Positions 425 through 18,975 of a DNA stretch of 64,000 nt are shown piece after piece. Source of the stretch: a virus. The stretch spans positions 11,930-75,929 of the IMG/VR virus record IMGVR_UViG_3300020472_000018. One strand, given 5' to 3'. A model generated the notes under the pieces. That model was given only the letters and a program-made list of their open reading frames with translations. It was not told where the DNA came from and did no database searches. The translations under genes and the position numbers were made by a program. Position 1 is the stretch's first letter, and every line of letters starts with the position of its first letter.

Positions 425-3400
425 ATGACACAGGACACCAATTTTACAGGAATAAATGAAGGTGGGAATCATCAGGTAAGTAATGTTGCCGAATTTTATA
501 ATGACGTTCATGTTTATGGAAAATTATATGCTGATTTAGTTGGTGGATTATCTGGTGATGGTGATACATTAATAGTAACTAATTTAGAAGTTACTAAAAA
601 TGCTTTTTTTGGTGGTGATGTAACCATAGAAGGTCTTCTTGATACAGATTATCTTACAGTTTATCAAAGGTTAGATGTTGGTGCTGGTGGAACAGTTTTT
701 ACTGCTATTTCTACAACTAACGGTAGAGATGGATATGGACAAACTGGAGGTCGGGTTGGTATAGGTAGTACCCAACCAGATGCTTTGTTCCAAGTGGGTG
801 CAGGTGATACTTCTTTTGTTGTTACTGATTGGGGTAATGTTGGAGTGGGAACTACCATTCCTGGTGGAAAATTCCAGGTTGGATTGGAATGTTTAACAGT
901 TACTACTGATCCTTGTAGTGTTGGTATTGCAACTACACAACCACAGGATAAATTCCAAGTTAGTAGTGGAACACAAGGTGCTGTTATAAGTGATGCTGGA
1001 CAAGTTGGTGTAAGAACCTCTATGTTCGAGGGGACAGAAGTCTTTAAAGTAAATTCAACAGATAATTCGTTTGTTATTACTGATACAGGTAATGTTGGTA
1101 TAGGAAGTTTAGATCCTACTGCTATTCCTGGTTATGATGCAGCTACAGAAGGTATAATAAAATTAAATGTAGAAGGAACAGTTAAGATTGATAGAAATCT
1201 AATTGATTCTGCTGATTCTCCAGGTGCAAATGGATATTATTTGGCAAGAGATGGGAATGGTATAAGATGGCAACAAGCATCTCCCGTTTCTTTGGATGGA
1301 ATGTATGTTCAGGATGAAGGTGCTAATTTACCTACAAATGGAACTGCACAGTTATTCCAGTATTTAAATTTTGTAGAAATAGAGAGTCAAGGTCTTGGAG
1401 TAGATACATTACTTCCAATACCAGATCCAGTAAACCCAACTGCAGTTGCAAAGATTCAAACACAGGCTTTATGGGGTCATACTAATTCTACCAATACTTC
1501 TCCAATCTATAGGATGACTAAGGTTGGTATTCTTAATAATAATCCTCAAGTAGAATTAGATGTAAGTGGAGAACTTCATGTTACTCAGGCAGTTGATTTT
1601 GATGATACCTTAAATGTTGATGGTGATGTTACTCTTAATGCTAAAGTAGATGTAGATGGATTAGCAACATTTAATGATACTACTGATGCAAGTAGTACTA
1701 CAAGTGCATCTGTTCAATTAGATGGTGGACTTGGTGTTCAGAAGAAAGTATATATTGGTGGATCAACAAGGATTCAGGATACTACTGATTCTTCATCATG
1801 TAATACTGGTGCTTTAGTTGTATCTGGTGGTGTTGGCATAGGTAAAAATCTTCATGTTTGTGGTGAAGCTGATTTTGATAAGAGTGTTGTAATAGATGAT
1901 ACAACACAATCTGTAAACTGTACTACTGGTGCTTTAATAGTTAAGGGTGGTGTTGGTATTTCTAAGAATTTGAATGTTTGTGGTGATGCGGATATTTACA
2001 GTACAACACAGTCAACAGATAAGAATAGTGGTGCATTAGTTGTTGAAGGTGGTGTAGGAATTGAGAAGAATTTAAATGTAGGTCAGAATACAAAACTTAC
2101 TGGAACATTAGAATTAGAAAATCAAATAATTGATAAGTTTGATAGTAATGGTGTTGGTATATGTAAAACTGATTATAGGTTATCTACTTTTAGTACTGGT
2201 GTTGGTGTTGGGGTATCTTGGAGACCTTCTGGAGTTCAAACTAAGAGAACTATTTGGGTTACAAAGAATGGATGTGATAGTAATAGTGGATTATTAGAAG
2301 GTGATGCAAAAGCAACAATTGCTTCTGCAGCAGCAGTAGCACAGATGGGTGATACTATTAAAGTTCGTTCTGGTGTTTATTTTGAAGATAATCCAATTGG
2401 ATTAAATTATGATGTTGCCATTTCTGGTGAGGATTTAAGATTAGTTACTGTTGTTCCAAATAATACTGATAAAGATATATTCCATGTTAGAAATGGATGT
2501 TTAGTAGAAAATATGAGTTTTAAAGGATCTGATGGTGTGTTGACAACTCATCATGGTTTGGCAGCAGTAGCATTCCCACCAACAGATAATGCTAAAAAGG
2601 CAATTAATGGTTTTATTCAATTAGGTCCATCCAATGAAGGACCTAGTGGTAGATATAAGAGTCCATATGTTAGAAACTGTACTAACTTTATGACTGGTAG
2701 TATTGGTATGAAGATTGATGGTGATCATGTTAATGCTGCATATACTGGAACTAATAACTTAGGTCAGGATATTAAGAGTATGGTTTGTGATTCCTTTACT
2801 CAATATAATGAAGCAGGTATTGGTGTTTCAATTACTAATAAAGGATATGCTCAGTTAGTTTCTATCTTTACTATTGGATGTGAGAAAGCAATTTATGCTG
2901 ATAGTGGTGGACAATGTGATTTGACAAACTCTAACTCATCTTTTGGTACTTATGGATTAGTTTCTGATGGTACGAGTGGTGTAGAATTTGATGGAACTTT
3001 AAGTACCAAGATGGAAGCGGAAGCTGATAAGATAGTTGTTACCAACTGCCAAGATCAAAGTAATAATAATAGGACTCCTTTTGATGGGCAGGGTGCATAC
3101 TTCCATTTAGATATGAATGATTATCCAGATACCATTTCAACTGCATCAATAACTTCACCAATGCAGATTATTAGATCTATTAATGTTGTTAATGGTGGTA
3201 ATCCTGGTGATTATGCTGCATCTGCACCACCTCTTATTACTGCTACTCTTCCAGATGGTCCAGAATCAATTATTGCAGAATTTTCTCCCAATGTAAGTGC
3301 TGCTGGAACAATTACATCTGTGGATGTTATTTCTAGTGGTAGAAATTTCTTACCCACACAAAGTATTGTTATAAGTATATCTGGGTCTGGTGCTGCACAA

Positions 3401-3817
3401 TTAACTGCAGATATGGACCCCATTTTATATACTGTTGATGAAGCAACAGAAGTTACTTCTAGTGGTGGAACAACAGTAACCTTTAATGAATTTATTCCTT
3501 ATGAAATAAAATCTACTGCAAAGGTTGAATTTGTAAGATTAAGTAGGATTATAACCAGTTCACATTCATTTGAATATGTGGGTGCTGGTGTAGACCTAAA
3601 TACAGCTAACCCATTCCAAGCTGGAAAACCAGTGCCAGAAAATGAAGTTATTGCCATTAATGGTGGTCAAGTTCCTTTCACAAGTACGGATCAAAAAGGT
3701 AACTTTAGAATTGGTGATGGTTTGACTATTGATCAGACAACGTCTACAATACGTGGTAGAGATTTCAATAGAGCAATACAAGCACAATTAACACCACTGA
3801 TATTAGCACTTAGATAA
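425..3817 (+). CDS. Tail fibre / virion structural protein
   Basis: VGIGST..P fibre repeats, GALVVxGGVGIxKNL repeats, C-terminal GQVPFTSTDQKGNFRIG domain typical of cyanomyovirus fibres. Confidence 0.8.
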   Translation: MTQDTNFTGINEGGNHQVSNVAEFYNDVHVYGKLYADLVGGLSGDGDTLIVTNLEVTKNAFFGGDVTIEGLLDTDYLTVYQRLDVGAGGTVFTAISTTNGRDGYGQTGGRVGIGSTQPDALFQVGAGDTSFVVTDWGNVGVGTTIPGGKFQVGLECLTVTTDPCSVGIATTQPQDKFQVSSGTQGAVISDAGQVGVRTSMFEGTEVFKVNSTDNSFVITDTGNVGIGSLDPTAIPGYDAATEGIIKLNVEGTVKIDRNLIDSADSPGANGYYLARDGNGIRWQQASPVSLDGMYVQDEGANLPTNGTAQLFQYLNFVEIESQGLGVDTLLPIPDPVNPTAVAKIQTQALWGHTNSTNTSPIYRMTKVGILNNNPQVELDVSGELHVTQAVDFDDTLNVDGDVTLNAKVDVDGLATFNDTTDASSTTSASVQLDGGLGVQKKVYIGGSTRIQDTTDSSSCNTGALVVSGGVGIGKNLHVCGEADFDKSVVIDDTTQSVNCTTGALIVKGGVGISKNLNVCGDADIYSTTQSTDKNSGALVVEGGVGIEKNLNVGQNTKLTGTLELENQIIDKFDSNGVGICKTDYRLSTFSTGVGVGVSWRPSGVQTKRTIWVTKNGCDSNSGLLEGDAKATIASAAAVAQMGDTIKVRSGVYFEDNPIGLNYDVAISGEDLRLVTVVPNNTDKDIFHVRNGCLVENMSFKGSDGVLTTHHGLAAVAFPPTDNAKKAINGFIQLGPSNEGPSGRYKSPYVRNCTNFMTGSIGMKIDGDHVNAAYTGTNNLGQDIKSMVCDSFTQYNEAGIGVSITNKGYAQLVSIFTIGCEKAIYADSGGQCDLTNSNSSFGTYGLVSDGTSGVEFDGTLSTKMEAEADKIVVTNCQDQSNNNRTPFDGQGAYFHLDMNDYPDTISTASITSPMQIIRSINVVNGGNPGDYAASAPPLITATLPDGPESIIAEFSPNVSAAGTITSVDVISSGRNFLPTQSIVISISGSGAAQLTADMDPILYTVDEATEVTSSGGTTVTFNEFIPYEIKSTAKVEFVRLSRIITSSHSFEYVGAGVDLNTANPFQAGKPVPENEVIAINGGQVPFTSTDQKGNFRIGDGLTIDQTTSTIRGRDFNRAIQAQLTPLILALR

Positions 3818-3818
3818 T

Positions 3819-4811
3819 ATGGCAATTGCACCAGTAAATAAGTTTATTAATATTGCTGTTCCTGTTGCACCAGGAGTACAGAAACTTTATGAGGTTCCTA
3901 CAGGAACTTCTGCATTATTGTTATATGCACAAGTATCTAATGTTGCTGTTGGAACAACTTATCCTACAACTACATTTTGGCAGAGAAGAACGCAGAGAAG
4001 TACTGGTAGTACAAGAGATGTAAGAGTAATAAAATCAGCAGAAATACCACCACAGGATGCATTAATAATGGTGGATGGTAGAATTGTATTAGAAAAAACT
4101 CCTTTAGTAGTTGATAGTTTATTCATTAGAGGAACACAACAAGGAGTTGGTATTATTACTGATGTTCAATATGATGAACCATCAGGAATTGCTACAGTTC
4201 ATACTGAGATAAAGCATGGATTTAGTGCTGGTGATCAGATTAGTATGGGTGGTATGTATTTCACTTGTGCTTCTTATTCTGGTATAACAACTAATATTTT
4301 TCCAGATCCTCAGAGATCTTATACTATTGATCAGATTCAAGGTAATGTAGGAACATCAAAAACATTTTCAATTGATATTGGTGGTGCTGGTGGAAATGCT
4401 CATACCTATAATTCAGCAATACATAGATTTGTTAGAGCAGCTACTGAATGTGTAGAAGTTGTTTCCAGTTCAAACTATACTGCTGGTGATAAATTTAATG
4501 TAAGTAATGCAAGTTATGAAGGATCTACTGGAGAATTAGTTTTAACTTTAGGTGCAAATAATCTTCAAGCAAATGATACAATAAAAATTGCAGATAATTC
4601 TTTAGTATTTACTTGCACTATGGATAATAATTATAGTGAACATTCTTATCCAAGATCAACAGATCCAGCATTTAATACTCCATTAACACTTGCTATTGCT
4701 ATTGCAAATGAATCAATTAGGGTTCAAGTTGGTAAGTCAAGTGCTGGTGGATTTGTTGCTCCATTAGAAATGGAGTTAATCGCAAGTATTCTAGAGAATA
4801 GTAATGTCTAA
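3819..4811 (+). CDS. Virion structural protein (fibre-associated)
   Basis: 330 aa, two internal beta-rich repeats, tightly packed in the late block. Confidence 0.6.
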
Positions 4812-6621
4812 GCGATATTTGAGTGGTCGGGTTAAGAGAACCCCACAAGACCAATTAAAAGATGATAGGTATAAGTATCTCGGATTAGAACAGGCAGAAC
4901 CTAATCTTGCAGATCCTGGTACAACACCACCAGTTCCTTCTGGACAGCAATATCAGTTAGTTGCTATTCCTGCGTTTCCAGGTAAAAGATATTGGGTTCC
5001 TGTTGGTGGTGGATTAATTCCAGGTGCTATTAGTGTATATGATGAAGGTATTCTTGTTAGTGCTGCAAGTAGTATTACCCAACTTAATTTTGTTGGAGCA
5101 GCAGTAACTGCTGCAGCAGATCCTCAACATCCTTCAGGGCATCCAGGTATTGCTGCAACTGTAACTGTTATACCTGTTACTATTGGTTCTGATCCTCCAG
5201 TTAATCCAAATCATGGAGAGTTATGGTGGGAAGATGATATAGGTGATTTATGTATTTGGTATGATGATGGTGATAGTAGTCAGTGGGTTACTGTAGTTGC
5301 TAGTGGAAATGGAGGAGGTCCTACAGGTCCTGCAGGTCCTCCAGGTGGTCCAGGTGCTCCAGGTGGTGGCGGTCCTGCTGGTCCTCCAGGTCCTCCAGGT
5401 TCAGATGGTCCAGTAGGACCAGGTGGAACAGGACCTACTGGTCCTCCAGGTCCTCCAGGATCAAGTGGTCCTACAGGTCCAGCAGGTGGTCCTCCAGGTC
5501 CCGTAGGTCCTCCAGGTCCAACAGGTACTCCAGGATCTGATGGTGCTGATGGCGATACTGGTCCTCCAGGTCCTGCTGGTCCTCCAGGTCCCGATGGTCC
5601 TACAGGTGGATCAGGTCCTACAGGTGGTCCAGGTCCTACAGGTCCTCCAGGTCCAGATGGTCCTACTGGTCCTGCTGGTGGTCCTCCAGGTCCCGATGGT
5701 CCTCCAGGTCCTCCAGGAACAACAGGTGGATCAGGTCCTCCAGGTCCAGATGGTCCCGCAGGTCCTCCAGGTCCAGCAGGTGGTCCTCCAGGTCCTGATG
5801 GTCCAGATGGTCCCGCAGGTCCTCCAGGTCCCGATGGTCCTCCAGGTCCAGGTGGTCCTCCAGGTGCAGGTGGTGGTTCTGGTATTCCAACTGGTGCAAT
5901 TTTAATATGGTCTGGTGCTGCAAATGCTATTCCTTCTGGATGGGTATTATGTGATGGAAATAATAGTACTCCAAATTTAACAAATAGATTTGTTGTTGGT
6001 TCTGGTGCTAGTTACTCAGTTAATGATACTGGTGGTAGTGCTAATTCAGTAGTTGTATCACATAACCACGGTGCTAATGTTAATATTAGTGGTGGAGGTG
6101 CTCATACACACTCATTCTCAGATTCCTTTACTGCATCTGGATCTCACTCTCATAGTTTTTCAGATTCTTTCTCTGCATCTGGATCTCACTCTCATACTTT
6201 CTCTGGATCTAATTCACACAGCCACGGTTTAAATTTAAGCGATTCTGCTCACCAACATACTACTGCAATACCTTCTGGATCTCAGGGTATTGATACTGAT
6301 AGTCATGGTCATGATATGAGCATTTATTCAGGTGCTACCAATTCTTCATCTTGGGGTGCAACTGCTAATGTTAGTGGTACTGTTTCATCATCCTCAATTT
6401 CTGTTTCTGGAAATACAAGTAGTCAAAGTGTAAGTATTTCTGGATCTGTTTCTGGAAATACAAGTAATGAAAGTGTAAGTATTTCTGGATCTGTTTCTGG
6501 AACTACTGGTTCTGGTGGTAGTGGTGTAAGTGGATCAGCAACAATTGATTCTGAAGGTGTTACAGGAACGAATAAGAATCTTCCTCCATATTATGCACTA
6601 TGTTACATCATGAAAACTTAA
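4804..6621 (+). CDS. Collagen-like tail fibre with tail-collar-like domain and HxH-rich tip
   Basis: [13 protein letters not shown] module, long Gly-X-Y run, [22 protein letters not shown] collar motif, 7 HxH motifs, [13 protein letters not shown] end. Confidence 0.85.
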
Positions 6622-6622
6622 A

Positions 6623-6629
6623 ATAAATA
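6623..6629 (+). promoter_or_regulatory. T4-like late promoter
   Basis: ATAAATA about 20 nt before the 6650 start. Confidence 0.55.
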
Positions 6630-6649
6630 AAGAGGTATATTAATATTTA

Positions 6650-8275
6650 ATGTCAGGACATACTCCCAGAATTGATTTTCCAGCTAATCCCAATGTAGGA
6701 GAAGATTACTCCTATAATAACTCCATTTGGAGATGGGATGGATATGTGTGGAGAAGAATTCCTGATCCTGGTGCTCCAGGTCCAACAGGTCCTGCAGGTC
6801 CTCCTGGTTTTACTGGTCCCACAGGTCCCACAGGTCCCGATGGTCCTGTAGGACCTCCTGGTCCTGCTGGTGGTCCTCCAGGTCCTCCAGGTAATGATGG
6901 AACTCCTGGTCCTCCAGGTGGAGATGGTCCTCCAGGTATTGGTGGTCCTACTGGTCCTCCAGGTAATGATGGTCCTCCAGGTCCTCCAGGTCCTAATGGT
7001 GTTGGAACTCCTGGTCCTCCAGGTAATGATGGTCCCACAGGTCCTACTGGTCCCACAGGTCCTACTGGTCCTCCTGGTCAAAATCAAGGTCCAGCAGTTA
7101 CTGAAGTATTTGTAAAACAATATAAGCAAGATGGCGTAGAACGAAGTTGTGAAAGTCCTGTTTTTGTCACTGGTGGTGATACAATTGGGATTGGATCGAC
7201 AAGTAATGCTTACGGAAATAGATTTGCTCAAAATGATGATCCAACAACGGCTCCTGGTGGTAGTTGGAATGTTTGTGATGGAGATTTATGGTATGATTTA
7301 GATTCTGGTGCTGGTGGTGGTCCTGGTCCTGCTGGTCCTCCTGGACCTCCTGGTCCTCCTGGTGGTGGACCTCCTGGACCTCCTGGTCCTCCAGGAAATG
7401 ATGGTGGTGTTGGTGGAGATGGTCCTCCTGGACCTCCTGGTCCTCCTGGATCTGGTGGATCAGGTGGTGCTAATGTAACCACTGATGATAATCCACCTAG
7501 TAATCCTACTGATGGAGATCTTTGGTGGGATTCGGCTAATGGTCGATTAAATGTATATTATGATGATGTTGATAGTTCACAATGGGTTAGTGCTAGTGCT
7601 GCAGGAGTTGGACCTGATGGTCCTGCTGGTCCTCCAGGTAATGCTGGTCCCCCAGGTCCTCCAGGATCTGGTGGTGCAACTGATAAAATAGAAGAAGGTA
7701 ATACTTCTGTTGAAACTATTGATACTGGTACTAACGGTAAGATTATTTTTGAAACAGAAGGAAGTGATAGGTGGGAAATTAGTAGTGCTGGTCATCTTCT
7801 TCCAGTAGATCATGAAGATTATGATATAGGATCAGCATCTAGAAAGGTAAGACATTTATTCTTATCTGATAACAGTATAAAATTTGTTAAGAGTGATAAT
7901 ACAGTTAATTCATTAGGCATATACACAGGCACTGATGCATTAACTTGGACTGGATCATACGGTGCTATGAGACTAGGTGGACATATTATCCCTACATCAA
8001 ATGCAGTATATGATCTAGGTAATGCAGAATATAAGATTAGACATTTATTCTTATCAGATAATAGTTTAAAATTCGTAGGTGCTGATGATGTAGTACGTGC
8101 GGTTGGTATTACCAATGGCAATTTAACCTATATGGGTAATCAATTATTAACAGTTTCTCTTGATAGTCCTCAAGCTGGACATATTTTAGAGTATAATGGT
8201 ACAGTATGGGCGAATAAGGTTAATAGTGGTTCTGCAACATCTCCATTTGAAAGTAATTGGCATATGCCACTCTAA
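6650..8275 (+). CDS. Collagen-like fibre protein
   Basis: N-terminal DFP..WRWDG..W module, Gly-X-Y runs, GDLWWDS..SSQWV module, duplicated RHLFLSDNS repeat, C-terminal PFESNW peptide. Confidence 0.85.
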
Positions 8276-8299
8276 ATAGTAAACAGGAATTTAAAGATT
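8272..8299 (+). promoter_or_regulatory. Late promoter/RBS junction motif, copy 1
   Basis: CTAAATAGTAAACAGG..ATT-ATG. Confidence 0.6.
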
Positions 8300-8698
8300 A
8301 TGGCAGCAACAATCTATAACGGAGTAATGCAGGGTACGGGAGCAGATCATACACAAACTCTCTATACTAACAATACAGGTGGAAATGTTAGATTAATATT
8401 TAATTACTTTCAAACTGGTGCAGCAAGTCCTGGAATTTTTCGTATCTATATTGGAACAACAAGTGCTCCTACCCATCCTAGTGGTGGTGATCTTGATACA
8501 ATGGAGCTTAATCCACCTAGTAATACTATATACGGAAAAAATATGATCAATAATCCTATAAATGAAGCAGGTAATGCTTGGCCTACTGAATTAATGTTAG
8601 CTAATAATAATTCCATTTGGGTAAGAATGCCTACACAGATTCATAATTATAATACGGCAATAATTTATAATTTTACGGTAGTACCAGAGACTAACTGA
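8300..8698 (+). CDS. Small variable fibre-associated protein (paralog 1)
   Basis: MAAT..NG..YTNNTGGNVR..NY start and YNFTVVPE end shared with 9193 and 12779. Confidence 0.7.
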   Translation: MAATIYNGVMQGTGADHTQTLYTNNTGGNVRLIFNYFQTGAASPGIFRIYIGTTSAPTHPSGGDLDTMELNPPSNTIYGKNMINNPINEAGNAWPTELMLANNNSIWVRMPTQIHNYNTAIIYNFTVVPETN

Positions 8699-9168
8699 TG
8701 GCAGTAAATTTTCCAAATAGTCCTTCAACTAACGACACCCACACCGAGAATAGTTTAACTTGGAAGTGGGATGGGACTACCTGGATTATTCAATCTGTTG
8801 CACCTCCTGGTCCTGCTGGTCCTCCAGGTCCTCCTGGTAACGATGGTAATGATGGTAATGATGGTACTCCAGGATCTGATGGTAACGATGGTACTCCAGG
8901 TGGTGCAGGACCTCCTGGTCCTCCTGGTTCTCCAGGACCTCCTGGATCTGGGGGTGGTGCTAGTGTAACTACTGATGATACTCCTCCAACTTCACCTAAT
9001 GATGGTGATCTTTGGTGGGATTCTGAAGAAGGAGTTTTAAATGTGTATTATGAGGATGCTAATAGTTCTCAATGGGTTAATGCTTCTGGTAGGGGTAATA
9101 TAGATCTATCATCTATTAAATCTCCAAATCTTTTATTCCAAAGTCAGAATTGGAATATACCTTTCTAA
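8698..9168 (+). CDS. Short collagen-like fibre/adaptor protein
   Basis: N-terminal NFP..WKWDG module, Gly-X-Y run, GDLWWDS module, C-terminal FQSQNW peptide. Confidence 0.8.
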
Positions 9169-9192
9169 ATATTAAACAGGGATTATAAAATT
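9165..9192 (+). promoter_or_regulatory. Late promoter/RBS junction motif, copy 2
   Basis: CTAAATATTAAACAGG..ATT-ATG. Confidence 0.6.
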
Positions 9193-9579
9193 ATGGCAGC
9201 AACAGTACATAACGGATCTATAACACCAGGTAGCACTTATACTTATGTTAATAATACTAATAAAAATGTAAGGATTGTTATTAATTATCTGTGGTTTGGA
9301 CAATCTGGTAGTAATCCTTGGCTGTATATTGGAACGGGACAAGGTCAAAATGGTGATGCTACAACAATAGCTATTGAATTACTTGCTGGACAGGCATATG
9401 GAAAACAACTTGGTTTTATTAGAGGTGATGATCATACAGCAATTCAAGCACAAGGTCCACAAGGTTTTCATTGTCCTCTAGAGTTTTTTCTAGCTGAAGG
9501 AATGCATTTTATTATAGAGATATTAGGTAATCATAATAAAAATACAATGTTTAATTTTGTAGCAATAACTGAAGATTAA
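9193..9579 (+). CDS. Small variable fibre-associated protein (paralog 2)
   Basis: YVNNTNKNVRIVINY and FNFVAITE motifs. Confidence 0.7.
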   Translation: MAATVHNGSITPGSTYTYVNNTNKNVRIVINYLWFGQSGSNPWLYIGTGQGQNGDATTIAIELLAGQAYGKQLGFIRGDDHTAIQAQGPQGFHCPLEFFLAEGMHFIIEILGNHNKNTMFNFVAITED

Positions 9580-9581
9580 TA

Positions 9582-10526
9582 ATGGCAATAGATTTTCCTG
9601 CGAGTCCTAGTACCAATGATACCCATACTCATAATGGGTTGACTTGGACTTTTGATGGGACAACGTGGAAAATAAACACAACAGTTCAGAGTGGTTCAAC
9701 TACATTTACAGGTTTAACAGATACACCTTCAAGTTATACTAGTCACGGTAGTAAATTTGTTAAGGTTAATAGTGCTACTAATGCATTAGAATTTGATTCT
9801 GCTGGTGGTGGAGTAACAGATGGTGATAAAGGAGATATTACAGTATCAAACTCTGGTGCAACTTGGAATATTGATGCTAGTACTATTGGTACTACTGAAT
9901 TATCTGCAACAGGAACAAAAGATGCTACAACATATTTGAGAGGAGATAATACTTGGCAAACTATAAGTAGTGGTGCTAGTGTAACTACATCTGATACACC
10001 ACCTTCTAGTCCTAGTGATGGTGATCTTTGGTGGGATTCACAAAATGGTAGATTACTTGTATATTATGAGGACGCTAATAGTTCTCAGTGGGTTGATGCT
10101 TCAGGTAGAGGTGTAAATAATTCTGTTTCACAGGAGACTGGAACATTCAGTTTAACATTAAGTCCTAATTGTCAAAATGCTGCAGTTAGTACTGGTAATT
10201 ATGTAAAGACTGGTAATATGGTTACTGTTGATTTTAATGTATATCATAATGGTGGAACTGCTGGAGATACCAATTTACGATGGGGTGGACAGAATCAATA
10301 TTTTACAATAAATGATACTTCATTACGTCCTGTGGCTACAGCAGGACTTTTCTACAATAGAAGATATTTTGATTGCCCACCTGGCAATGTTACTGGTACA
10401 TTAGGGGTGTGGGTAGGTACTTGTGGTGTTACTCCTACTGGTGAAATATATACTTCTAGTTCAATGGCAGCAGGACCAGGACAATATGGAATATATTATT
10501 TTAGTGGTAGTTGGAGGGTAGCATAA
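9582..10526 (+). CDS. Fibre protein with globular C-terminal tip
   Basis: N-terminal DFP module, GLTDTP module, DGDKGDITVS, GDLWWDS module, YVKTGNMVTV tip domain. Confidence 0.75.
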   Translation: MAIDFPASPSTNDTHTHNGLTWTFDGTTWKINTTVQSGSTTFTGLTDTPSSYTSHGSKFVKVNSATNALEFDSAGGGVTDGDKGDITVSNSGATWNIDASTIGTTELSATGTKDATTYLRGDNTWQTISSGASVTTSDTPPSSPSDGDLWWDSQNGRLLVYYEDANSSQWVDASGRGVNNSVSQETGTFSLTLSPNCQNAAVSTGNYVKTGNMVTVDFNVYHNGGTAGDTNLRWGGQNQYFTINDTSLRPVATAGLFYNRRYFDCPPGNVTGTLGVWVGTCGVTPTGEIYTSSSMAAGPGQYGIYYFSGSWRVA

Positions 10527-11989
10527 TGGCAATAGATTTTCCTACAAGTCCTAGTCTTAATGCCACTCATAGTCATAATGGTTTAATTTGGAAGTGGGAT
10601 GGTACATCTTGGATTTTACAAACAACTATACAATCTGGTGTAACTCAAATACCACCTATGGTTAATGTTGCAGACTATGGAGCACTTCCAAGTGCTAGTG
10701 GTGCAGCAAATAGAACTGGTATTGAAAATGCTATTAACTCATTAGCATCTACGGGAGGAATGGTTTATATTCCTACAGGAACTTATGATATAACAGGTAC
10801 TATATTATTAGATAGTGGAACTTTGGGTGATGGTGGTGGTATAAGTATTATTGGTGCAACTGAGAATTATAGAATTAGTGCTGCTGATGCTGAAGGCACT
10901 TTGCTAAGATCTACTGATGCTGGTAGTGATATAATCAAAGTAAATAACGTAAGAAATGTAACTTTTGCCAACTTAGCATTTGATCATAAAGACGGCACAC
11001 CTAGAAATGGTGGAAATGCTATTCATTGTTATTCTAATGTAAATACTCAACAAATTAGAATGGATAGGATTTATATCCGAAATCAATTTGGTGGTATTAA
11101 AATGGATGGACATTCCATTTCAACATTCAGAGATATAGAGATTAGAGATATTGTAAATGAAGGTGGTTCTTTTGGAATGTTATTCAGTGCTTCTGCTGGT
11201 GGATCGGAAAGAGTTGATCAGATAAGATGTGAGAATGTTTTAATTGATGGTGTGATTAGTGGAAGTCCACATCCAACTGCAAATGGATTATGGGTTAAGG
11301 ATTTTGTAAATTCAATATGGTTCCTTAATTGTGTATCTAATCGTTGTAATAAAGGATTATTAATGGATGCAACTGTTCCTAGTGGAGATACAGGTAATCC
11401 TGGTTCATTCTTTAGAATAAATGATTGTGATTTTGATACTAATAATTCATATGGTATTGAGATTGCTGGTGGTAGTTTTATATGGATTAATAACCCATAT
11501 ATAAGTAGTAATCTTATTAATGGTTTGAGAACTAGTTCGACTTTTAGTGGTGTTTTAAGATTGAATGCTGCAGATTGTAGAGGTAATGGTCAGCACGGAA
11601 TTTATATTCGCTCTGATCAACATAAAAAAATTCATATAAGAGACTCTCAGTGTTCTTATAATTCTGCATCTAATACCAATGCTTATGATGGACTTCATAT
11701 ATACGATGATGGTGCTGCATCTGTAAATCAATCTGATATAATGATTGATGGTGGACAGTATGGTGGAGATATGATGGGAGGCATTAATGATGGTGGTGGT
11801 GGTCCTGGAACAACACAGAGGTATGGAATTAATTTTACTGCTAATATTAAATACAAAAGAATCATTATTAATAATGTAGATTGTTCTGCAAATTTAACAG
11901 GATCACATAGATTTACAGTTGGTAATGGAACTGATAATATGATTCATAATGTTATTCCATTCCACGGATCACACTCAGGTGCTCATTAA
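10526..11989 (+). CDS. Tailspike-like right-handed beta-helix (pectate-lyase-like) protein
   Basis: N-terminal DFP module followed by [23 protein letters not shown] and Asn-ladder repeats; ATG overlaps the upstream stop (TAATG). Confidence 0.8.
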
Positions 11990-12753
11990 TGGCTGTTAAA
12001 CTCAGAAAAGATGGCAGTTGGGTAACTATAGTAGGTAATGGACCTCCAGGTCCTGCAGGACCTCCAGGTCCTGATGGTCCCGATGGTCCTGCAGGTCCTC
12101 CAGGAAATGATGGTGCTGATGGTACTCCTGGTCCCGCAGGTCCTCCTGGTCCTATAGGTCCTCCTGGTCCTCCAGGTCAAGATGGTAATGATGGTGGTAC
12201 AGGTCCATCAGGACCTCCAGGTCCAACAGGTCCCGATGGTCCAGTAGGTCCTACTGGTCCTTCAGGTGGTCCTCCAGGTCCCGATGGTCCTCCAGGTCCT
12301 CCAGGAAATGATGGTGCTGATGGTCCTGGTGGTCCGCCAGGTCCTCCTGGTCCTGCTGGTGGTCCTCCAGGTCCCGCAGGTACTCCAGGTCCTGCTGGTC
12401 CTCCAGGTGTTGCTGGATTAACTATTGCAGAAATTCCACCAACTACTCCTACTCCATCTCATGGTGATATGTGGTGGGAAAGTGATACAGGACATCTATA
12501 TGTTTATTATGATGATGGTGATAGTAGTCAATGGGTAGCAACATCTCAAGGTCCTGCTGGATCTCCAGGTGCTCCTGGTGGTCCTCCAGGTCCTGATGGT
12601 CCCGCAGGTCCTCCAGGTCCCGATGGTCCTCCAGGTCCTGGTGGTGGTGGACCTCCAGGTCCTCCAGGTTCTCCAGGTCCTCCAGGTTCATCTGGTACTG
12701 CTGGAACATATCCATTTGAGACTGGTAATTGGCTTCTTGGAATAGGTCACTAA
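11989..12753 (+). CDS. Collagen-like fibre/adaptor protein
   Basis: Mostly Gly-X-Y; [13 protein letters not shown] module; C-terminal PFETGNW peptide. Confidence 0.85.
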
Positions 12754-12778
12754 ATATTAAACAGGAGATTTAAACATT
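12750..12778 (+). promoter_or_regulatory. Late promoter/RBS junction motif, copy 3
   Basis: CTAAATATTAAACAGG..ATT-ATG. Confidence 0.6.
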
Positions 12779-13180
12779 ATGGCAGCTGAAGTATTTACAG
12801 GACAATTAGCAGCAAATAATACGTTTACCTATACTAATAGTACAGGTGGTAATGTTCGTGTTGTTATTAATTACATTTACACTCAAACTAGTAGTACTCC
12901 AACTATTGAATTTGGAGATGCATCAGCAACTGGACAGAATGCATATTGGACTACTAGAACATTCTTTAACTTGACTCAAAATACAACTTTTGGAAAGTCT
13001 GTAGGTTGGTCTTCTCCTACAAAAACTACTGGTCAAGCTGCAGTATCTTCTGGTGGTAATGACACTGGTGGTCCTACTGAAGTGTATTTGAAGAATACTG
13101 AGACTTTTAAAATTACTGCAAGTTCTGGATCAAGTTATGCTTGGGGTTGTAGATATCAAATTGTAGTAATACCAGAATAA
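12779..13180 (+). CDS. Small variable fibre-associated protein (paralog 3)
   Basis: [15 protein letters not shown] and YQIVVIPE motifs. Confidence 0.7.
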
Positions 13181-13181
13181 T

Positions 13182-15794
13182 ATGGCAGCATTCGATTTTC
13201 CAAATAGTCCGTCCCTTAACGATACCCATACAGAAAATGGGGTAATTTGGAAGTGGAATGGATATGCTTGGGATCGAGTTCCAAGTAGTGGTCCGCAAGG
13301 TGCTCCTGGTCCAACTGGACCAACTGGACCAAATGGTCCTTCAGGTCCATCAGGTCCTCCAGGTACTCCAGGTTCAGGTGGTGATGATGGTCCTCCAGGT
13401 CCAGATGGTCCTCCAGGTGCAGATGGTCCTCCAGGTCCTCCAGGAACTGGTGGTACTGTTGGTCCTCCAGGTCCAGATGGTCCTGCAGGTCCTCCAGGTG
13501 CTGGTGGTCCTCCAGGTCCTCCAGGTGTTGCTGGATTAGATATTGGAGTTGATCCTCCAACTGGTCCTTCTACCCACGGAGATATGTGGTGGGAAAGTGA
13601 TACTGGAGATTTACATGTTTATTATAATGATGGTAATAGTTCTCAATGGGTAGCAGTATCTCAAGGACCTGCTGGACCTGAAGGACCTCCAGGACCTCCT
13701 GGAACTGGTTCTGGTCCTCCAGGACCTCCTGGTTCTTCTACCTTTATAGGTTTAACAGATACCCCGAATAGTTTTACTGCTGATAAATGGTTAAAGGTTA
13801 ATAGTGGTGGAACTGCTTTAGAATGGACTCCTGCTGGTTCTGGTACTCCTGGTCCTCCAGGTCCTCCTGGTAATGATGGTAATGATGGGCAAGATGGTAA
13901 TGATGGTCCTCCAGGTCCTCCAGGATCAGGCGGTGCAACTTATGACTTTATTACAGTTGATCATGGTTCATCTACTGGATCTGGAACTGGTAATGATGTA
14001 GTTTTACGTCATAGTGATGGTACAACACATAATGATGTAAGACTTGTTGCTGGAAGTAATGTAACTTTCCAACATAGCTCAGCTAATAATTTCTTTACTA
14101 TATCATCATCAGGTAGTGGTTCTACTACTTTAGATAAGATAATAGAGGGTGATACAAAAGCAGAAGTAGTTGATAGTGGTACAGATGGATATTTTACTGT
14201 TGAAACAAACGGTACAGAAAGAATACGTATAACTGATGGTGAATTAAGACTTAAGAGAACTGATACTACTTTAGAGGGTGGGCAAATATGCTTTGATAAT
14301 ATTGATGGTGATCGAGCATATGCAATTGATGCTTATGGAAATAATGCTGCTAATACTATCCTTAGAATTATTGATGAACAAACAATAACTGGAGGTGTAG
14401 GTACTCAAAGGTTTGCTATTGATAGAGGTGGTGCTCTTGGGTTAGGTAATGTAGGAGCTGAAGATTGGGGATCTTCAGGTGATGTATTAACAAGTCAAGG
14501 TGCTAATGCATTACCTATATGGGGTCCTGCTGGTTCTGGTAGTCCTGGTCCTCCTGGACCTCCAGGTTCTGGTAGTGCTGCTGGAAATAATACTGAATTC
14601 CAATATAATAACAATGGATCATTTGCTGGTAATGAGCTTTTATTAGCAACCAATGACACATCATTTACTGGTAGTGGTGCAAGTATAACTCTTAATGGAG
14701 CTACACGTTGGGGTTTTGGTAATATTACTTGGGAACCTGATGTTGGTTGTTTAGCTCTCACGAGAGATTCATTCTTAATTTTTGGATCACCTGATAATGC
14801 TGTTTATCAGATGAAAGCTAGCATAGGTTGGGCTAGCTCTGTTAATAGATGGATTATGAATAATCCCACTGATGGAATGCCTTGGCATTTTGAAACCAGA
14901 GGTGAGATGGTATTCAAAAAGCAGAATAGTCCTGAAACTATTCATATGACTATTGATCCTACTAGTGGTGTTAGTATTAAGAATCAGTTAGATTTAGCAA
15001 CTGCTACTATTCTTGATAAGGATGGACAAGCAGGAAGTAGTGGTCAAGTATTAAGTTCAACTGGAACTGGACTTGATTGGGTTAGTGTTTCTAGTGGATC
15101 TCCTGGACCTCCTGGACCTCCTGGACCTCCAGGTGATGATGGTGAAAATGGTACTCCAGGTATTCCAGGACCTCCTGGGGAATCAACGACTACTGATCAA
15201 GGATTTAATATGGTACAATGGACTAGTACTACTAATGCAACTTATGTGTACTATACTCCTGATACAACTAAGTATAATAGGTGGGTTGTAATTGTCACTG
15301 GCGGTGGCGGTGGCGGTGGGGGAGGTTCTGCTGCTAACGCTGGAGGTGGTGGCGGTGGTGCTGGTACTGGAATAAGAGAATTTACCAAAGCAGAAATGGA
15401 TGATAATAGCTATTACAGTGGACAATGTCGTATTTTTGTAGGACAACCTGGATCTGGTGGAACAGGTGGTGGTAATGGTGGTAATGGAAATTATTCTGAA
15501 TTTGTAGTACCTACTGGAACTGCAACCTTTGGTCATAGTGGTTATGGTGGTGCTGGTGGTAACAGTGGAGCCATAGCTGCTGGTGGTAATGGTAGGTTTG
15601 GTGTTGGTGATATTGAATGTGGTGGTGATGAAGGTCATCCTGGAGATAATGGAATCACAGGACATGGCGGTGGTACTTTCTGGGGTGGTGCAGCCTATGA
15701 CTCAGCTGGTAGAGGTGGTAGAGGTGGTCAAACTGGTAGTAATAATGGTGGTGACGGTGGTCACGGACAAATAGTTCTGTTGGAGTTTGCTTAA
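13182..15794 (+). CDS. Collagen-like tail fibre with glycine-rich C-terminal domain
   Basis: DFP and GDMWWES modules, interspersed Gly-Pro-Pro hinges, VTGGGGGGG...[13 protein letters not shown] Gly-rich end. Confidence 0.85.
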
Positions 15795-15800
15795 TCAATT

Positions 15801-16343
15801 ATGTCTTCTTTTAGTAGTAAATCTTTAGTTGAAATATTGGCACTTACTCGGTCTCAAGTCATAGCATCTAAAAATACTGATTTTAGTTCTTTTAGAACTG
15901 GTATTGGAACTGATAGATTAGATTTTGCTGTAGTTAAAGATGGAACTAATATAGTGAATCACATTTATGTTGGATATGCAGATACTTCTAAAAATCCAAC
16001 TAATTCGGAAATAGGATTTGCTGGACATTATACTGTTGGTATTGGTAGTACATATAGAGGAACTTTTAATGATATAGATAATCAATGCCTTGTAAGACTT
16101 GGTTGGAAATATACTCAATCATCTGGATTTTATGATGCTCATGATTATACAGAAGAATGGACTGCAGGTTTAAGGCAAACTAGAGATAAATTTTTACTTG
16201 AATCTGATTGGTCTCAAGGTGCTGATTCTCCATTAAGTTCTAGTAAAAAAACTGAGTGGGCTACATATAGGCAAGCATTAAGAGATTTACCTGCAAATAC
16301 TTCAGATCTTGCAAATCCACCTTGGCCAACAAAACCATCATAG
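15801..16343 (+). CDS. Tail fibre assembly chaperone-like protein
   Basis: LRQTRDKFLLESDW..D.P..W..YRQALRDLP..WPTKP motif. Confidence 0.8.
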   Translation: MSSFSSKSLVEILALTRSQVIASKNTDFSSFRTGIGTDRLDFAVVKDGTNIVNHIYVGYADTSKNPTNSEIGFAGHYTVGIGSTYRGTFNDIDNQCLVRLGWKYTQSSGFYDAHDYTEEWTAGLRQTRDKFLLESDWSQGADSPLSSSKKTEWATYRQALRDLPANTSDLANPPWPTKPS

Positions 16344-16352
16344 AGTAAGAAT

Positions 16353-17501
16353 ATGGCAGCGTTTGATTTTCCAAATAGTCCTAGTACAAATGATACCCAT
16401 ACAGAAAATGGTGTTACTTGGAAGTGGGATGGATATGCTTGGAAAAGAGTTGAATCAGTAGGACCTTCAGGACCTCCTGGACCTCCAGGTAATGATTCAA
16501 CAGTTCCAGGTCCTCCTGGTTCAACAGGTCCCACAGGTCCTACAGGTCCCACAGGTTCAACTGGTAATACTGGAACTCCAGGATCTGATGGTAATGATGG
16601 TACTCCAGGTTCTGATGGTTCTGATGGTAATGATGGTCCTCCAGGTCCAGATGGTCCTGCAGGTCCTCCAGGTTCTGGTGGTTCTGCAGGTCCTCCAGGT
16701 CCAGATGGTCCCGATGGTCCAACAGGATCTCCAGGTGCTGATTCGACTGTTCCTGGTCCGACTGGTCCTCCTGGTTCAACAGGTGGTGATGGTCCTCCAG
16801 GTCCCGATGGTCCTCCAGGTCCCGATGGTCCTCCTGGTTCAACAGGTCCAACAGGTCCTGATGGTCCAACTGGTCCAACTGGTAGTGCAGCTAATCCATC
16901 TGTTCCTTCAGGAGCTGTTATGTTGTTTTATAGTTCATCTGCTCCTACTGGATGGACAAAACAAACATCACATAACAATAAAGCACTCAGAGTTGTGAGT
17001 GGTTCTGGTGGTGGTTCTGGTGGTAGTAATGCATTTACCAGTAATTTTGCTAGTAGATCTTTAAGTACTAGTGGATCTGGAAGTATTAGTGGATCTACAA
17101 GTAGTGATAATTCTGGATCTGTAAGTATTAGTGGTAATTGTGGTGGATCACAGATAGTGTATGTTACTACCACTCAAAATTGGTTATCGATAGATCAGAT
17201 GCCATCTCACCAACATCAATTCCCTAGTAAAGTTGGAACTTCTGGTGGCAACTATGGTTTTCTAGATACTTTAAATGCTGGTTCTTCAGGAACTCCTAGT
17301 GTTAATGCTACTGGTGGCAGTAACTACCACACACATGCTGTAATAATGTATACTATAAGTGGTTCTAACTTCACTTTTAGTGGATCTGGTTCTCCTAGTG
17401 ATCACAATCATACTGTCAGTGGATCTGCAAGTGTTAGTAGTTCAGGTTCTTTGGACTTGGCAGTTCAGTATGTTGATGTTATAATATGTACAAAGAACTA
17501 A
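16353..17501 (+). CDS. Collagen-like tail fibre with collar-like/HxH tip
   Basis: DFP module, Gly-X-Y run, VPSGAVMLF..APTGWTK..NNKALRVVSG, LAVQYVDVIICTK end. Confidence 0.85.
   Translation: MAAFDFPNSPSTNDTHTENGVTWKWDGYAWKRVESVGPSGPPGPPGNDSTVPGPPGSTGPTGPTGPTGSTGNTGTPGSDGNDGTPGSDGSDGNDGPPGPDGPAGPPGSGGSAGPPGPDGPDGPTGSPGADSTVPGPTGPPGSTGGDGPPGPDGPPGPDGPPGSTGPTGPDGPTGPTGSAANPSVPSGAVMLFYSSSAPTGWTKQTSHNNKALRVVSGSGGGSGGSNAFTSNFASRSLSTSGSGSISGSTSSDNSGSVSISGNCGGSQIVYVTTTQNWLSIDQMPSHQHQFPSKVGTSGGNYGFLDTLNAGSSGTPSVNATGGSNYHTHAVIMYTISGSNFTFSGSGSPSDHNHTVSGSASVSSSGSLDLAVQYVDVIICTKN
17457..17485 (+). promoter_or_regulatory. Sigma70-like promoter inside a fibre gene end
   Basis: TTGGCA-N17-TATAAT with TG extension. 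Confidence 0.5.
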
Positions 17502-17505
17502 TATA

Positions 17506-17841
17506 ATGAAGATTGAAGCAGGTAAATTCTGCCCTTTAATTGGTAAGGATTGTATACAATTACAATGTTCTTGGTTTACTCAGGTTCGTGGAATCAATCC
17601 TAATACTGGAGAAGAAATTGATGATTGGGGTTGTGCAGTTACTTGGTTGCCAACTTTAATGATTGAAAATTCACAGCAACAAAGAGCAACTGGTGCTGCT
17701 ATTGAATCTTTTAGAAATGAAACTGTGAAATCAACTATGAAAGCACAAGAAATATATCAAAGAGAATTAGAATTAAAAGCTCAAGAAAGATTAATGAAAT
17801 CTAGACAGACAATACATAACGTAACGGACATAGAAGAATGA
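17506..17841 (+). CDS. Conserved Cys-rich phage tail-region protein
   Basis: CPL..C...CSWF..G.NP.TGE..D.WGCA..ESFRNE motif. Confidence 0.65.
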   Translation: MKIEAGKFCPLIGKDCIQLQCSWFTQVRGINPNTGEEIDDWGCAVTWLPTLMIENSQQQRATGAAIESFRNETVKSTMKAQEIYQRELELKAQERLMKSRQTIHNVTDIEE

Positions 17842-18347
17842 AATTAACAGTTGTTCCACCAGATAAAACCATAGTTATTGACAATGTTTCAGTACATCCT
17901 TGTACTCATGTCGATCTTTCTTGGATTCCATCAGATGTTCATGGAATGTGTTTTGATACTACTACAGGAAAAGGTTTTATTGAATATAATGAAGATGCTG
18001 TAGATGCAAATGGAGATAAAAAATGGGGTGAGGATATTACTGAAATTGGTATCTGGCAACAAGCAGTAACAGATCATGCGAATGAACAAACCCTTGCAAC
18101 TGCTGCATATGAAGCAGCAAGAAATCATTTAACTGAGGTAAAGGATCATAGAAATTGGTTGCTTGCTGTTAGTGATTGGACTCGTTTGGATGATGTTACA
18201 CTTGCAGCAGATAAAAAAACTGAGTGGCAAACATATAGACAAGCATTAAGAGATCTTCCAGCAACCATATCAGCAGATGATAATTTAACTGCTAAATTAT
18301 TAGCAGATAATCACTCACATTCTGGTTGGCCGACAAAACCTTCATAA
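17838..18347 (+). CDS. Tail fibre assembly chaperone-like protein
   Basis: RNWLLAVSDW..W..YRQALRDLP..WPTKPS; paralog of 15801. Confidence 0.8.
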   Translation: MKLTVVPPDKTIVIDNVSVHPCTHVDLSWIPSDVHGMCFDTTTGKGFIEYNEDAVDANGDKKWGEDITEIGIWQQAVTDHANEQTLATAAYEAARNHLTEVKDHRNWLLAVSDWTRLDDVTLAADKKTEWQTYRQALRDLPATISADDNLTAKLLADNHSHSGWPTKPS

Positions 18348-18381: not shown

Positions 18382-18975
18382 ATGAATGATTTGATTCAAG
18401 CAATTAAAATTCTTAGTGTAAATGATCTTAAAAAGATTAATAAGTACATAGATACTCTTGATTTTCAAGATAATACTGTTTTTGGTAAACCAGGTCAAAA
18501 ATCAAAAACTAATACTAGTATTAGATCCAGCACAGGAACAACTTTAAAAGAAGATAATGAAATAACTGAAATTGTTCATAATGCTATGAATAAAGGGTTG
18601 GATGAATATAAGAGAAGAGTACAAAAGGTTCATACCAATTTTAGTTATTATCCTGTTCCTGGTGGATCTGGAACTAAATCTTGGAGAGAGGGAATACAGG
18701 TATTAGATTATAAAAAAGGGCAAGAATATAAATTTCATCATGATGCTGCAACAGATCCTAGATTGAAAGAATATCATAGAAAGATATCTATTATTTTATA
18801 TCTGGAAGAAGCGACTAAAGGTGGAGGAACTTCATTTCCACATTTGGGAATAAAACCAAAACCAGGTTATGCTTTAATATTTCCATCTAATTGGTGTTAT
18901 CCTCATGCAGGTGAACCAGTTTATGCTGGAAAAAAGAGAGTTGCTGTTACTTGGTATTATGTTGAAAACGCTTAA
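18382..18975 (+). CDS. 2OG-Fe(II) oxygenase, prolyl 4-hydroxylase-like
   Basis: HxD (FHHD), RKISIILYL, GGGTSF, distal His (YPHAGEPV), Lys in GKKR. Confidence 0.85.
   Translation: MNDLIQAIKILSVNDLKKINKYIDTLDFQDNTVFGKPGQKSKTNTSIRSSTGTTLKEDNEITEIVHNAMNKGLDEYKRRVQKVHTNFSYYPVPGGSGTKSWREGIQVLDYKKGQEYKFHHDAATDPRLKEYHRKISIILYLEEATKGGGTSFPHLGIKPKPGYALIFPSNWCYPHAGEPVYAGKKRVAVTWYYVENA

Follow-up and report, generated by a model that had tools for sequence, protein, structure and literature searches.

Class-matched N-terminal and in-shaft modules in collagen-like fibre genes of P-SSM2-like cyanophages: a candidate docking pair

Cyanomyoviruses have no recognisable T4 long-fibre genes, and how their many fibre-like genes are assembled into a host-recognition apparatus has been in question since the genome paper of the Prochlorococcus phage P-SSM2 (PMC1079782). 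The same question is raised by a cluster of eight fibre genes in a 64,000-nucleotide stretch of viral DNA (positions 11,930 to 75,929 of IMG/VR record IMGVR_UViG_3300020472_000018), which as a whole is called the window below. It is part of a 75.9-kb viral contig with a CheckV completeness of about 30% and, judged by gene order and nucleotide identity, represents a piece of a Prochlorococcus myovirus resembling P-SSM2. Two short modules are shared by its fibre genes, A at the N-terminus and B inside the shaft. A preliminary description made from the window had proposed that A docks on B, so that the genes would encode a branched tree of fibres. Here we find that the numbers and subtype classes of the two modules match across related loci and that a parallel arrangement is present in a T7-like phage, and we put the probability that A and B are a docking pair at roughly 60%.

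What exactly do the eight genes share? Module A occupies residues 1–37 of six open reading frames (ORFs), namely o6650, o8698, o9582, o10526, o13182 and o16353, and the GD(L/M)WW motif that marks B lies at position 138 of o4804, 289 of o6650, 103 of o8698, 147 of o9582, 159 of o11989 and 133 of o13182. Profiles built from the six window copies of each module retrieved exactly six A (E-values of 3e-21 to 3e-26) and exactly six B (5e-30 to 9e-29) from the whole 75.9-kb contig, with no further copy of either, and together with a check of the ORFs they bear out the eight fibre genes and the six-to-six tally given earlier. The copies stand well above chance expectation; because the contig amounts to about 30% of a genome, six to six is the count for this contig alone. 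For convenience, a gene that has B without A and begins with the conserved N-terminal domain of o4804 is termed a root, a gene with both modules a connector and a gene with A only a leaf (Table 1). All eight ORFs are labelled as tail-fibre proteins by PHROGs. The Gly-X-Y rods said to separate the modules are present in six of the eight genes, with matches to the collagen family PF01391 at 31–67 bits (cut-off 27.2), while o9582 and o10526 fall below the cut-off and have no such rod; the beta-helix reported in o10526 was recovered as a pectate-lyase-like one. More than two types of module make up these mosaic genes: an F.GLTDTP.S(Y/F)...K..KVNS...LE(F/W) module is common to o9582 (residues ~40–72, positions 9700–9800) and o13182 (residues ~187–217, positions 13740–13830), and a DKI.EG.T..E..D.GT.G....ET.G..R module to o6650 (7700–7830) and o13182 (14130–14250).

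The preliminary description had offered co-variation of A and B copy numbers as a check on docking. Viral loci were collected in two sets of 80, one by the B profile and one by the N-terminal domain of the root; all their ORFs were scanned with the A and B profiles, and a cluster was taken as complete from the root gene to the orthologue of o19228, a fibre gene of ~1900 amino acids (aa) downstream. Synteny is kept across these loci, an o425-like gene and an o3819-like gene being followed by the root gene, which has the conserved N-terminus and its first B near residue 121; after it come the genes that start with A. Of 25 distinct complete-cluster architectures, 20 have as many A-headed genes as B modules (permutation p<1e-5), as do 12 of 17 after removal of the 0/0 cases (p ~6e-4); A never exceeds B. 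Counts over 35 whole contigs, made with broader profiles (A3, A4), were equal in 25 of them: six contigs stand at 1:1, seven each at 2:2 and 3:3, two each at 4:4 and 6:6, and one at 5:5. The remaining ten all have more B than A, several of them ending at a contig edge. With P-SSM2 itself at 4/4, co-variation is clearly positive in P-SSM2-like and related marine cyanophage loci, and the opposing case, many A without B, was seen in none of the related loci. Two other ways of counting were discarded. Ending the cluster at o17506 or o18382 undercounted A, because the position of these genes differs between loci, and treating an adjacent BB pair as one site fitted more poorly than the raw B count (two sites against four A in locus L067).

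The case draws its strength from how varied the rule-abiding architectures are, and not from a corrected p-value. In L067 the root carries four B in a row and is accompanied by four separate A-only genes; in L029 and L116 three B in the root go with three A-only genes, and two with two are found in many loci. Since such tandem-B roots are matched by separate A genes, duplication of a B...A cassette cannot explain the equality. Nine distinct loci with a B-less root have no A gene.

Do particular A modules go with particular B modules? Clustering of 80 A and 93 B instances gave subtype classes that recur together, a mapping that is read from the same data and is descriptive, not an independent test: the root-proximal b1/b2 with a1–a4, b14 with a9/a10, b12/b11 with a16, b4 with a14, b9 with a11/a12/a16, and b8/b10 with a15. 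A root with b2b9 is followed by a11 and a1, one with b2b4 by a14 and a1, one with b2b9b4 by a11, a14 and a1, and one with b2b9b12 by a16, a12 and a1. The window's classes have 1, 3 and 2 members for A and B alike, and the class of each B pairs with that of the A in the next fibre gene. Where B is one above A (L008, L010, L100, L101), the unpaired B is b2. Most residues specific to a class fall in the flanks of B, whose core (GDLWWxSDxGxLxVYYxDGxSxQWV) is almost invariant.

Among 26 complete phage genomes, both modules occur in 19, neither in five (S-CAM9, P-SSM4, S-PM2, Syn9, P-HM1) and B alone in none. Five genomes that had appeared to have only B by tblastn, and one that had appeared to have only A, all yielded the partner module to the profiles, mostly in an adjacent gene; four control cyanomyoviruses have neither module. 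A equals B exactly in P-SSM2, ACG-2014e/i/j, S-CAM4, S-RSM4, S-WAM2 and S-CAM9. The complete P-SSM2 genome has four A and four B, and the fourth pair lies 200 kb away from the others, where PSSM2_295 (a 1170-aa fibre with B at 579–631) is directly followed by PSSM2_296 (254 aa, A at 1–35; record positions 217085–221372). The N-terminus of the fibre at this locus was called gp10-like in the 2005 paper (PMC1079782). Because the counts diverge in more distant complete genomes, the one-to-one rule belongs, on these profile counts, to the root locus of P-SSM2-like phages and related marine lineages and is not universal at this sensitivity.

A parallel comes from a podovirus. The tail fibre of the T7-like Synechococcus virus S-TIP28 (STIP28_49) consists of the T7 anchor PF03906 (residues 6–103), B (129–173) and then a beta-helix, and the next gene (STIP28_50) joins A (1–43) to a pectate lyase (L176:3289-7017). 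The docking interpretation passes the comparative count test and finds this independent parallel, and we regard it as partly supported. A third, small 'structural protein' of S-TIP28 (STIP28_55, 115 aa, L176 8269–8616) has an A-like module at its start. In P-SSP7 (NC_006882.2 34155–34280, within a 716-aa ORF), one site matches both A (15.9 bits) and B (18.1 bits), both weakly, and is ambiguous; it may represent an A/B-like intermediate within a fibre-like podovirus protein.

How are the modules placed in proteins at large? A begins at residue 1–2 in 111/111 metagenomic homologues (proteins of 210–669 aa), and a methionine lies within a few residues of A in 121 of the 128 A matches in the related loci. 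The claim that A is always N-terminal thus holds for the cyanophage type; in other proteins A-like units are internal and in tandem. The distal domains joined to A include collagen, Collar, pectate lyase, S74, C1q and Gly-rich ones, as is expected of an attachment adaptor. B is present in one to five copies per protein, often back to back. Neither module can merely be a device for collagen registration, because collagen is absent from about one fifth of the A-only proteins and from some B proteins.

Both modules are predicted to be small beta folds. In the AlphaFold2 model of o8698, computed as a single chain from an alignment of natural A...B proteins, A (residues 1–33) has three strands with a predicted local distance difference test score (pLDDT) of ~83, and B (residues 90–130) four strands with ~81; an earlier alignment of mixed fragments was abandoned because MAFFT had set A fragments onto B. 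The model of residues 1–175 of the root o4804 is confident in the B part only, the N-terminal 110 aa having a pLDDT of ~50–65 and no recognised fold. No Pfam family was found at threshold for window A or B, and PF10983 (DUF2793) gave no match in the window proteins at E<=0.1. Searches of PDB sequences with narrow and broad A and B profiles gave nothing significant (best: phiKZ gp184, E 0.29; CBA120 TSP4, E 1.3; EccB3, E 0.08), nor did Foldseek (best E 0.6, CBA120 TSP4-N) or VIA-align (Z<=3.8), in which the best matches for B were the collagen XV/XVIII trimerisation domains 3n3f (Z 3.8, root-mean-square deviation (rmsd) 5.3 over 48 residues) and 9bnb (Z 3.5). A T4gp10-like domain was sought in B without any Pfam, PHROG or significant fold match, and with only ~48 residues such a homology is unlikely for B.

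Two apparent relationships were set aside. Matches of PF18050 (Cyclophil_like2) to B were judged a motif coincidence (GDxxYW...G.L.xFY), since no single stretch passes and only positions 45–84 align, and in a profile–profile comparison A and B aligned over only ten columns (P..P..GD) with a probability below 5%, which gives no direct homology between them. For A, sequence and fold searches chose the same chain, PDB 8y6v chain I (phiKZ gp184 residues 69–102), as the best match in sequence (E 0.29–1.5, not significant) and as the one row listed by fold (Z 2.6, 33 residues at rmsd 1.5). Nothing else is ordered in this inner-capsid protein; the piece forms a small beta wedge that sits between a capsomer and gp86.

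How might two such modules build a fibre assembly? In the docking model, A would be a plug of ~35 residues and three strands at the N-terminus, and B a node of ~48 residues and four strands in the trimeric shaft that serves as the socket. The root (o4804 family) would presumably sit on the baseplate through its conserved N-terminal domain and offer at least one B node, and each B node would recruit one A-headed fibre; fibres with both modules would extend the assembly, and those with A only would end it, as the beta-helix spike o10526 and the His-rich tip o16353 might do. Because each B-bearing protein runs past B to a tip of its own, the product would be a branched set of several adhesins. 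For the window, the classes suggest that o4804 (b2) takes o6650 (a3), that the b14 sockets of o6650, o8698 and o9582 take the a9 plugs of o8698, o9582 and o10526, and that the b12 sockets of o11989 and o13182 take the a16 plugs of o13182 and o16353. From these patterns we infer the physical binding of A to B as well as the stoichiometry, the branched geometry and the attachment to the baseplate.

The gene o11989 has neither A nor the root N-terminal domain, and it may be a branch rather than a root, because its N-terminus resembles the second half of B and co-occurs with a half-B elsewhere. That half-B is an additional, truncated copy in o6650 (7244–7333, residues ~199–228), in which ten residues at residue 211 run straight into Gly-X-Y. 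The N-terminus of o11989 (11989–12040), a hairpin-like sequence of 15 residues, resembles the missing second half as well as the foldon hairpin. Both features occur together in the window, P-SSM2, L003, L006 and L088, which form a single lineage.

Where could the modules have come from? Searched against the full library, the A profile matched 27,105 proteins, mostly as partial W.WDG..W matches in multi-repeat proteins with 10–29 stretches each; most of these were rejected as A modules and are probably propeller-type repeats. Some intermediate proteins with tandem units match PF10983 weakly (25.9–44.7 bits, cut-off 27), and the link of A and B to DUF2793 is transitive and weak because only these intermediates, and not the window proteins, match. 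Homology between A and B is likewise suggested only transitively, because some tandem units are matched by both profiles. Both modules probably go back to a single family of small nodes set within trimeric fibres, often collagen-like ones, and the A head may pack on B in trans as the tandem units pack in cis. A broader proposal, which we hold only tentatively and think somewhat doubtful as a whole, is that orthogonal mini plug-and-socket pairs, drawn from one ancient collagen-node repeat, specify fibre attachment, that one root would thereby build a defined tree of at least 4–6 adhesins, and that the same code would serve T4-like myoviruses, T7-like podoviruses and a freshwater actinophage. 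Five library proteins (P0229, P0234, P0247, P0268, P0264) have A-like units (P..P..NQAYYN......YIW(D/N)G..W) 4–10 times per chain, and Lcl_C or BspA leucine-rich repeat (LRR)/Listeria-Bacteroides repeat domains, typical of bacterial surface proteins, are found among proteins of this kind.

Several observations weigh against docking. A three-fold shaft that binds a three-fold fibre sideways raises a symmetry problem; the o8698 model has a predicted template modelling score of 0.33 with a disordered collagen linker; and no known docking or branching domain was matched significantly in the sequence and fold searches. The A/B counts differ in several complete genomes, with A in excess in S-CAM7 (3/1), ACG-2014f (4/2), S-H9-1 (2/1) and S-TIP28 (2/1), and B in excess in the MC09 group (10/15–16), S-B68 (2/10), S-CREM2 (3/8), S-CRM01 (6/10), Sf-CH1b (1/3) and DSL-LC01 (2/4), and Syn5 has a weak A and no B. 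In the metagenomic search A is absent from 88 of 117 B proteins, and on that distribution alone B resembled a generic shaft repeat. Near-full A-like units occur in 32 of the best 149 library proteins examined, about 20 of the 32 having them internally in tandem; some of the tandem units alternate with collagen segments, some of the proteins also carry Lcl_C or BspA-type LRR domains, and in several the A and B profiles match the same units. Finally, many of the loci are not independent, as they are related to each other and the locus recombines. An independent-pairs sign test on the root-domain tree, in which A never moved opposite to B, had only one or two well-supported pairs and is therefore underpowered, the tree of this 110-aa domain being poorly resolved.

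Much of this would suit an explanation in which A and B, as members of one repeat family, work independently, as self-trimerising or registration knobs that either cap trimeric rods or interrupt them, the A-headed fibres attaching elsewhere (to the baseplate or other proteins) and the count match reflecting shared ancestry of the fibre loci. Nodes that stand in tandem within a chain or alternate with collagen fit a self-trimerising knob and lower confidence in B as a dedicated socket; B itself forms tandem arrays, its best, non-significant fold matches are trimerisation domains of collagens XV/XVIII, and the diverging genome counts and the underpowered phylogenetic correction speak on the same side. 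What such knobs leave unexplained is the match itself. They give no reason for n tandem B in a root to go with exactly n separate A-only genes, over 1 to 4 copies (totals up to 6), nor do they account for the A-less loci with B-less roots, for A never exceeding B or for the class match, and both modules are also found without any collagen. We consider this explanation unlikely, if deserving of serious weight. The match would have another origin if A and B were conserved recombination boxes, comparable to the His boxes of T-even gp37/gp38, which bound exchangeable fibre cassettes and are gained or lost together at the DNA level without protein contact. A unit of B, F..NW tail, small ORF and A stands three times in the window between recombination-prone collagen repeats, the cluster has expanded from five to eight genes relative to P-SSM2, and neighbouring B(i) and A(i+1) share a subtype class, as such boxes might; but tandem-B roots match A-only genes 1–8 kb away in count and class with no B...A cassette, A is strictly at residue 1–2, and protein-level conservation extends down to ~35–40% identity, too low for homologous recombination, all of which makes boxes quite improbable. 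A third possibility is that A docks on something that co-varies with B, either the flanking shaft or a small adaptor such as the ~130-aa paralogues of Table 1, with B not being the contact surface. The concentration of class-specific residues in the B flanks around an almost invariant core, and the presence of small paralogues and Phage_tail_APC chaperones in between the fibre genes, are consistent with it; many count-matched loci have no small paralogue, however, and S-TIP28 has only anchor plus B and A plus lyase, and we rate an indirect partner as the least probable of the explanations considered.

Docking of A on B can be set beside known fibre systems. In the literature searched, no mention of the A/B motif or of branched cyanophage fibres was found, and the arrangement is probably a variant of branched receptor-binding complexes in which marine cyanophages use modules that are far smaller, can be repeated and seem to be matched by class. 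In KP32, K11 and KP34, podophages of Klebsiella, receptor-binding protein 1 (RBP1) has an anchor and a T4gp10-like branching domain, RBP2 has a conserved N-terminal docking peptide, and their interaction was shown experimentally (PMC6872550, PMC13352976). The cyanophage genes are similar in that a short, strictly N-terminal module sits on secondary fibres, the partner module follows the anchor or lies inside the primary fibre, the secondary gene is directly downstream and the distal domains are freely exchanged; S-TIP28 mirrors the layout gene for gene, with B in the position of the branching domain and A in that of the docking peptide. Unlike its Klebsiella counterpart, cyanophage B is a 48-residue beta-meander, not T4gp10-like by the searches run, with up to five copies per protein; it lies within collagen-like rods, apparently in several matched classes, and in both T4-like myoviruses and podoviruses, and its binding to A is what we infer here.

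Larger branched assemblies are known from Ackermannviridae, where the tailspikes TSP1–4 of CBA120 are joined through the assembly domains TSP4-N and TSP2-N (PMC8825819, PMC11414711), and from the hyperbranched fibres of the Klebsiella jumbo phage phiKp24 (PMC9700779). As in these, several receptor-binding proteins of the cyanophages would be held on one baseplate-anchored protein through N-terminal assembly domains, the number of genes scaling with that of the branches. The domains of CBA120 and phiKp24 are larger and XD/gp10-like, whereas the cyanophage modules are far smaller and repeated along a rod, and the only likeness is the non-significant TSP4-N row from Foldseek. Separate trimeric fibre proteins are also joined into a longer assembly in the long tail fibre of T4 (gp34-gp35-gp36-gp37) and in podophage A1002, whose chain-like fibres consist of two proteins (PMC13730344). 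There the proteins meet end to end, whereas cyanophage B usually lies mid-protein with a distal part of its own beyond it, and because of this a side branch is expected. Small beta modules of 30–55 residues beside Gly-X-Y rods recall the T4 fibritin foldon, the collagen XV/XVIII NC1 domain (3n3f/9bnb) and the DUF2793-like repeat, and A and B share with the foldon and multiplexin-type domains a Pro-rich extended lead-in (P..P..GD) followed by hairpins. We know of no foldon or multiplexin-type trimerisation domain that pairs with a second module on another protein.

The surroundings of the cluster agree with its assignment. Over no more than a part of its length, the region under study is 76–80% identical in nucleotide sequence to P-SSM2 and P-SSM5, both phages of Prochlorococcus, and its gene order is identical to that of P-SSM2: o425 and o3819 (PSSM2_021 and 022), the fibre cluster, two small genes, a 2OG-Fe(II) oxygenase and the ~1900-aa fibre gene (o19228, 1895 aa), which has a terminal S74 chaperone domain. 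The window has eight fibre genes in the cluster against five in P-SSM2, the extras being o8698, o9582 and o13182, and it also has two more small paralogues and one more chaperone. The cluster genes were named collagen-like or fibre-like in the 2005 P-SSM2 paper, in which the shared modules are not described (PMC1079782). No Pfam match was found in the 1130-aa and 330-aa genes upstream, and the N-terminal domain of the root is 42–100% identical across 38 non-redundant loci. The second chaperone and the oxygenase adjoin the cluster in most related loci.

Two further groups of genes accompany the fibres. The three paralogous genes of ~130 aa each lie 3' of a fibre gene that ends in a (P)F..NW motif (o6650, o8698, o11989), and tails of this type are seen in metagenomic homologues too (FQTKNWNIPF, KNWNMPL, YFSGSWRVA); the paralogues could be separate tip adhesins or chaperones bound to the F..NW tail. 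The oxygenase belongs to a prolyl-4-hydroxylase-type family (PF13640) and stands next to the collagen-like cluster both in the window and in the majority of related loci, some of which have two copies; it is annotated as piuC/ferrochelatase in P-SSM2. The enzyme is a candidate for hydroxylation of phage collagen prolines.

Table 1. Coordinates of the fibre-cluster genes and their neighbours in the window
Feature	Position	Strand	Evidence
Conserved upstream gene pair of 1130 aa and 330 aa, orthologous to PSSM2_021/022	425..4811	+	Synteny with P-SSM2 and dozens of IMG/VR loci; always 5' of the root fibre gene
o4804, root fibre: conserved N-terminal domain 4804-5130, B class b2 5164-5313, collagen rod, collar/HxH tip; no A	4804..6621	+	phrog_1800 (tip), profiles
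o6650, connector: A class a3 6650-6769, collagen, half-B 7244-7333, collagen, B class b14 7463-7615, F..NW tail	6650..8275	+	Profiles
Small 132-aa paralogue, first of three, 3' of o6650	8300..8698	+	No Pfam match; BLAST marker
o8698, minimal connector, 156 aa: A class a9 8698-8808, collagen, B class b14 8953-9102, short F..NW tail	8698..9168	+	Profiles
Small 128-aa paralogue, second of three	9193..9579	+	BLAST marker
o9582, connector: A class a9 9582-9692, non-collagen linker, B class b14 9969-10121, globular C-terminus	9582..10526	+	Profiles
o10526, leaf: A class a9 10526-10636 and pectate-lyase-like beta-helix	10526..11989	+	PF12708 E 1e-11; phrog_3449 E 5e-254
o11989: hairpin-like N-terminal sequence, collagen, B class b12 12406-12561, collagen, F..NW tail; neither A nor root N-terminal domain	11989..12753	+	Profiles
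Small 133-aa paralogue, third of three	12779..13180	+	BLAST marker
o13182, connector, 870 aa: A class a16 13182-13295, collagen, B class b12 13524-13679, further rods/knobs, Gly-rich C-terminus	13182..15794	+	Profiles
o15801, tail-fibre assembly chaperone	15801..16343	+	PF16778 Phage_tail_APC E 5e-17, 61.9 bits (cut-off 26.6)
o16353, leaf: A class a16 16353-16466, collagen, His-rich tip	16353..17501	+	Profiles
o17838, second Phage_tail_APC chaperone	17838..18347	+	PF16778 E 4e-14, 52.6 bits (cut-off 26.6)
2OG-Fe(II) oxygenase; with o17838 closes the cluster just 5' of o19228	18382..18975	+	PF13640 E 1e-15

If A and B do form a docking pair, the fibre architecture and the number of displayed adhesins would be readable from metagenomic contigs of very abundant ocean viruses, and host range would grow by the joint gain of a socket and a plug-bearing gene. 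For fibre engineering in laboratory phage-host systems, the modules would also offer docking tags that are very small and possibly orthogonal. P-SSM2 is in culture and has four pairs, which makes the idea directly testable.

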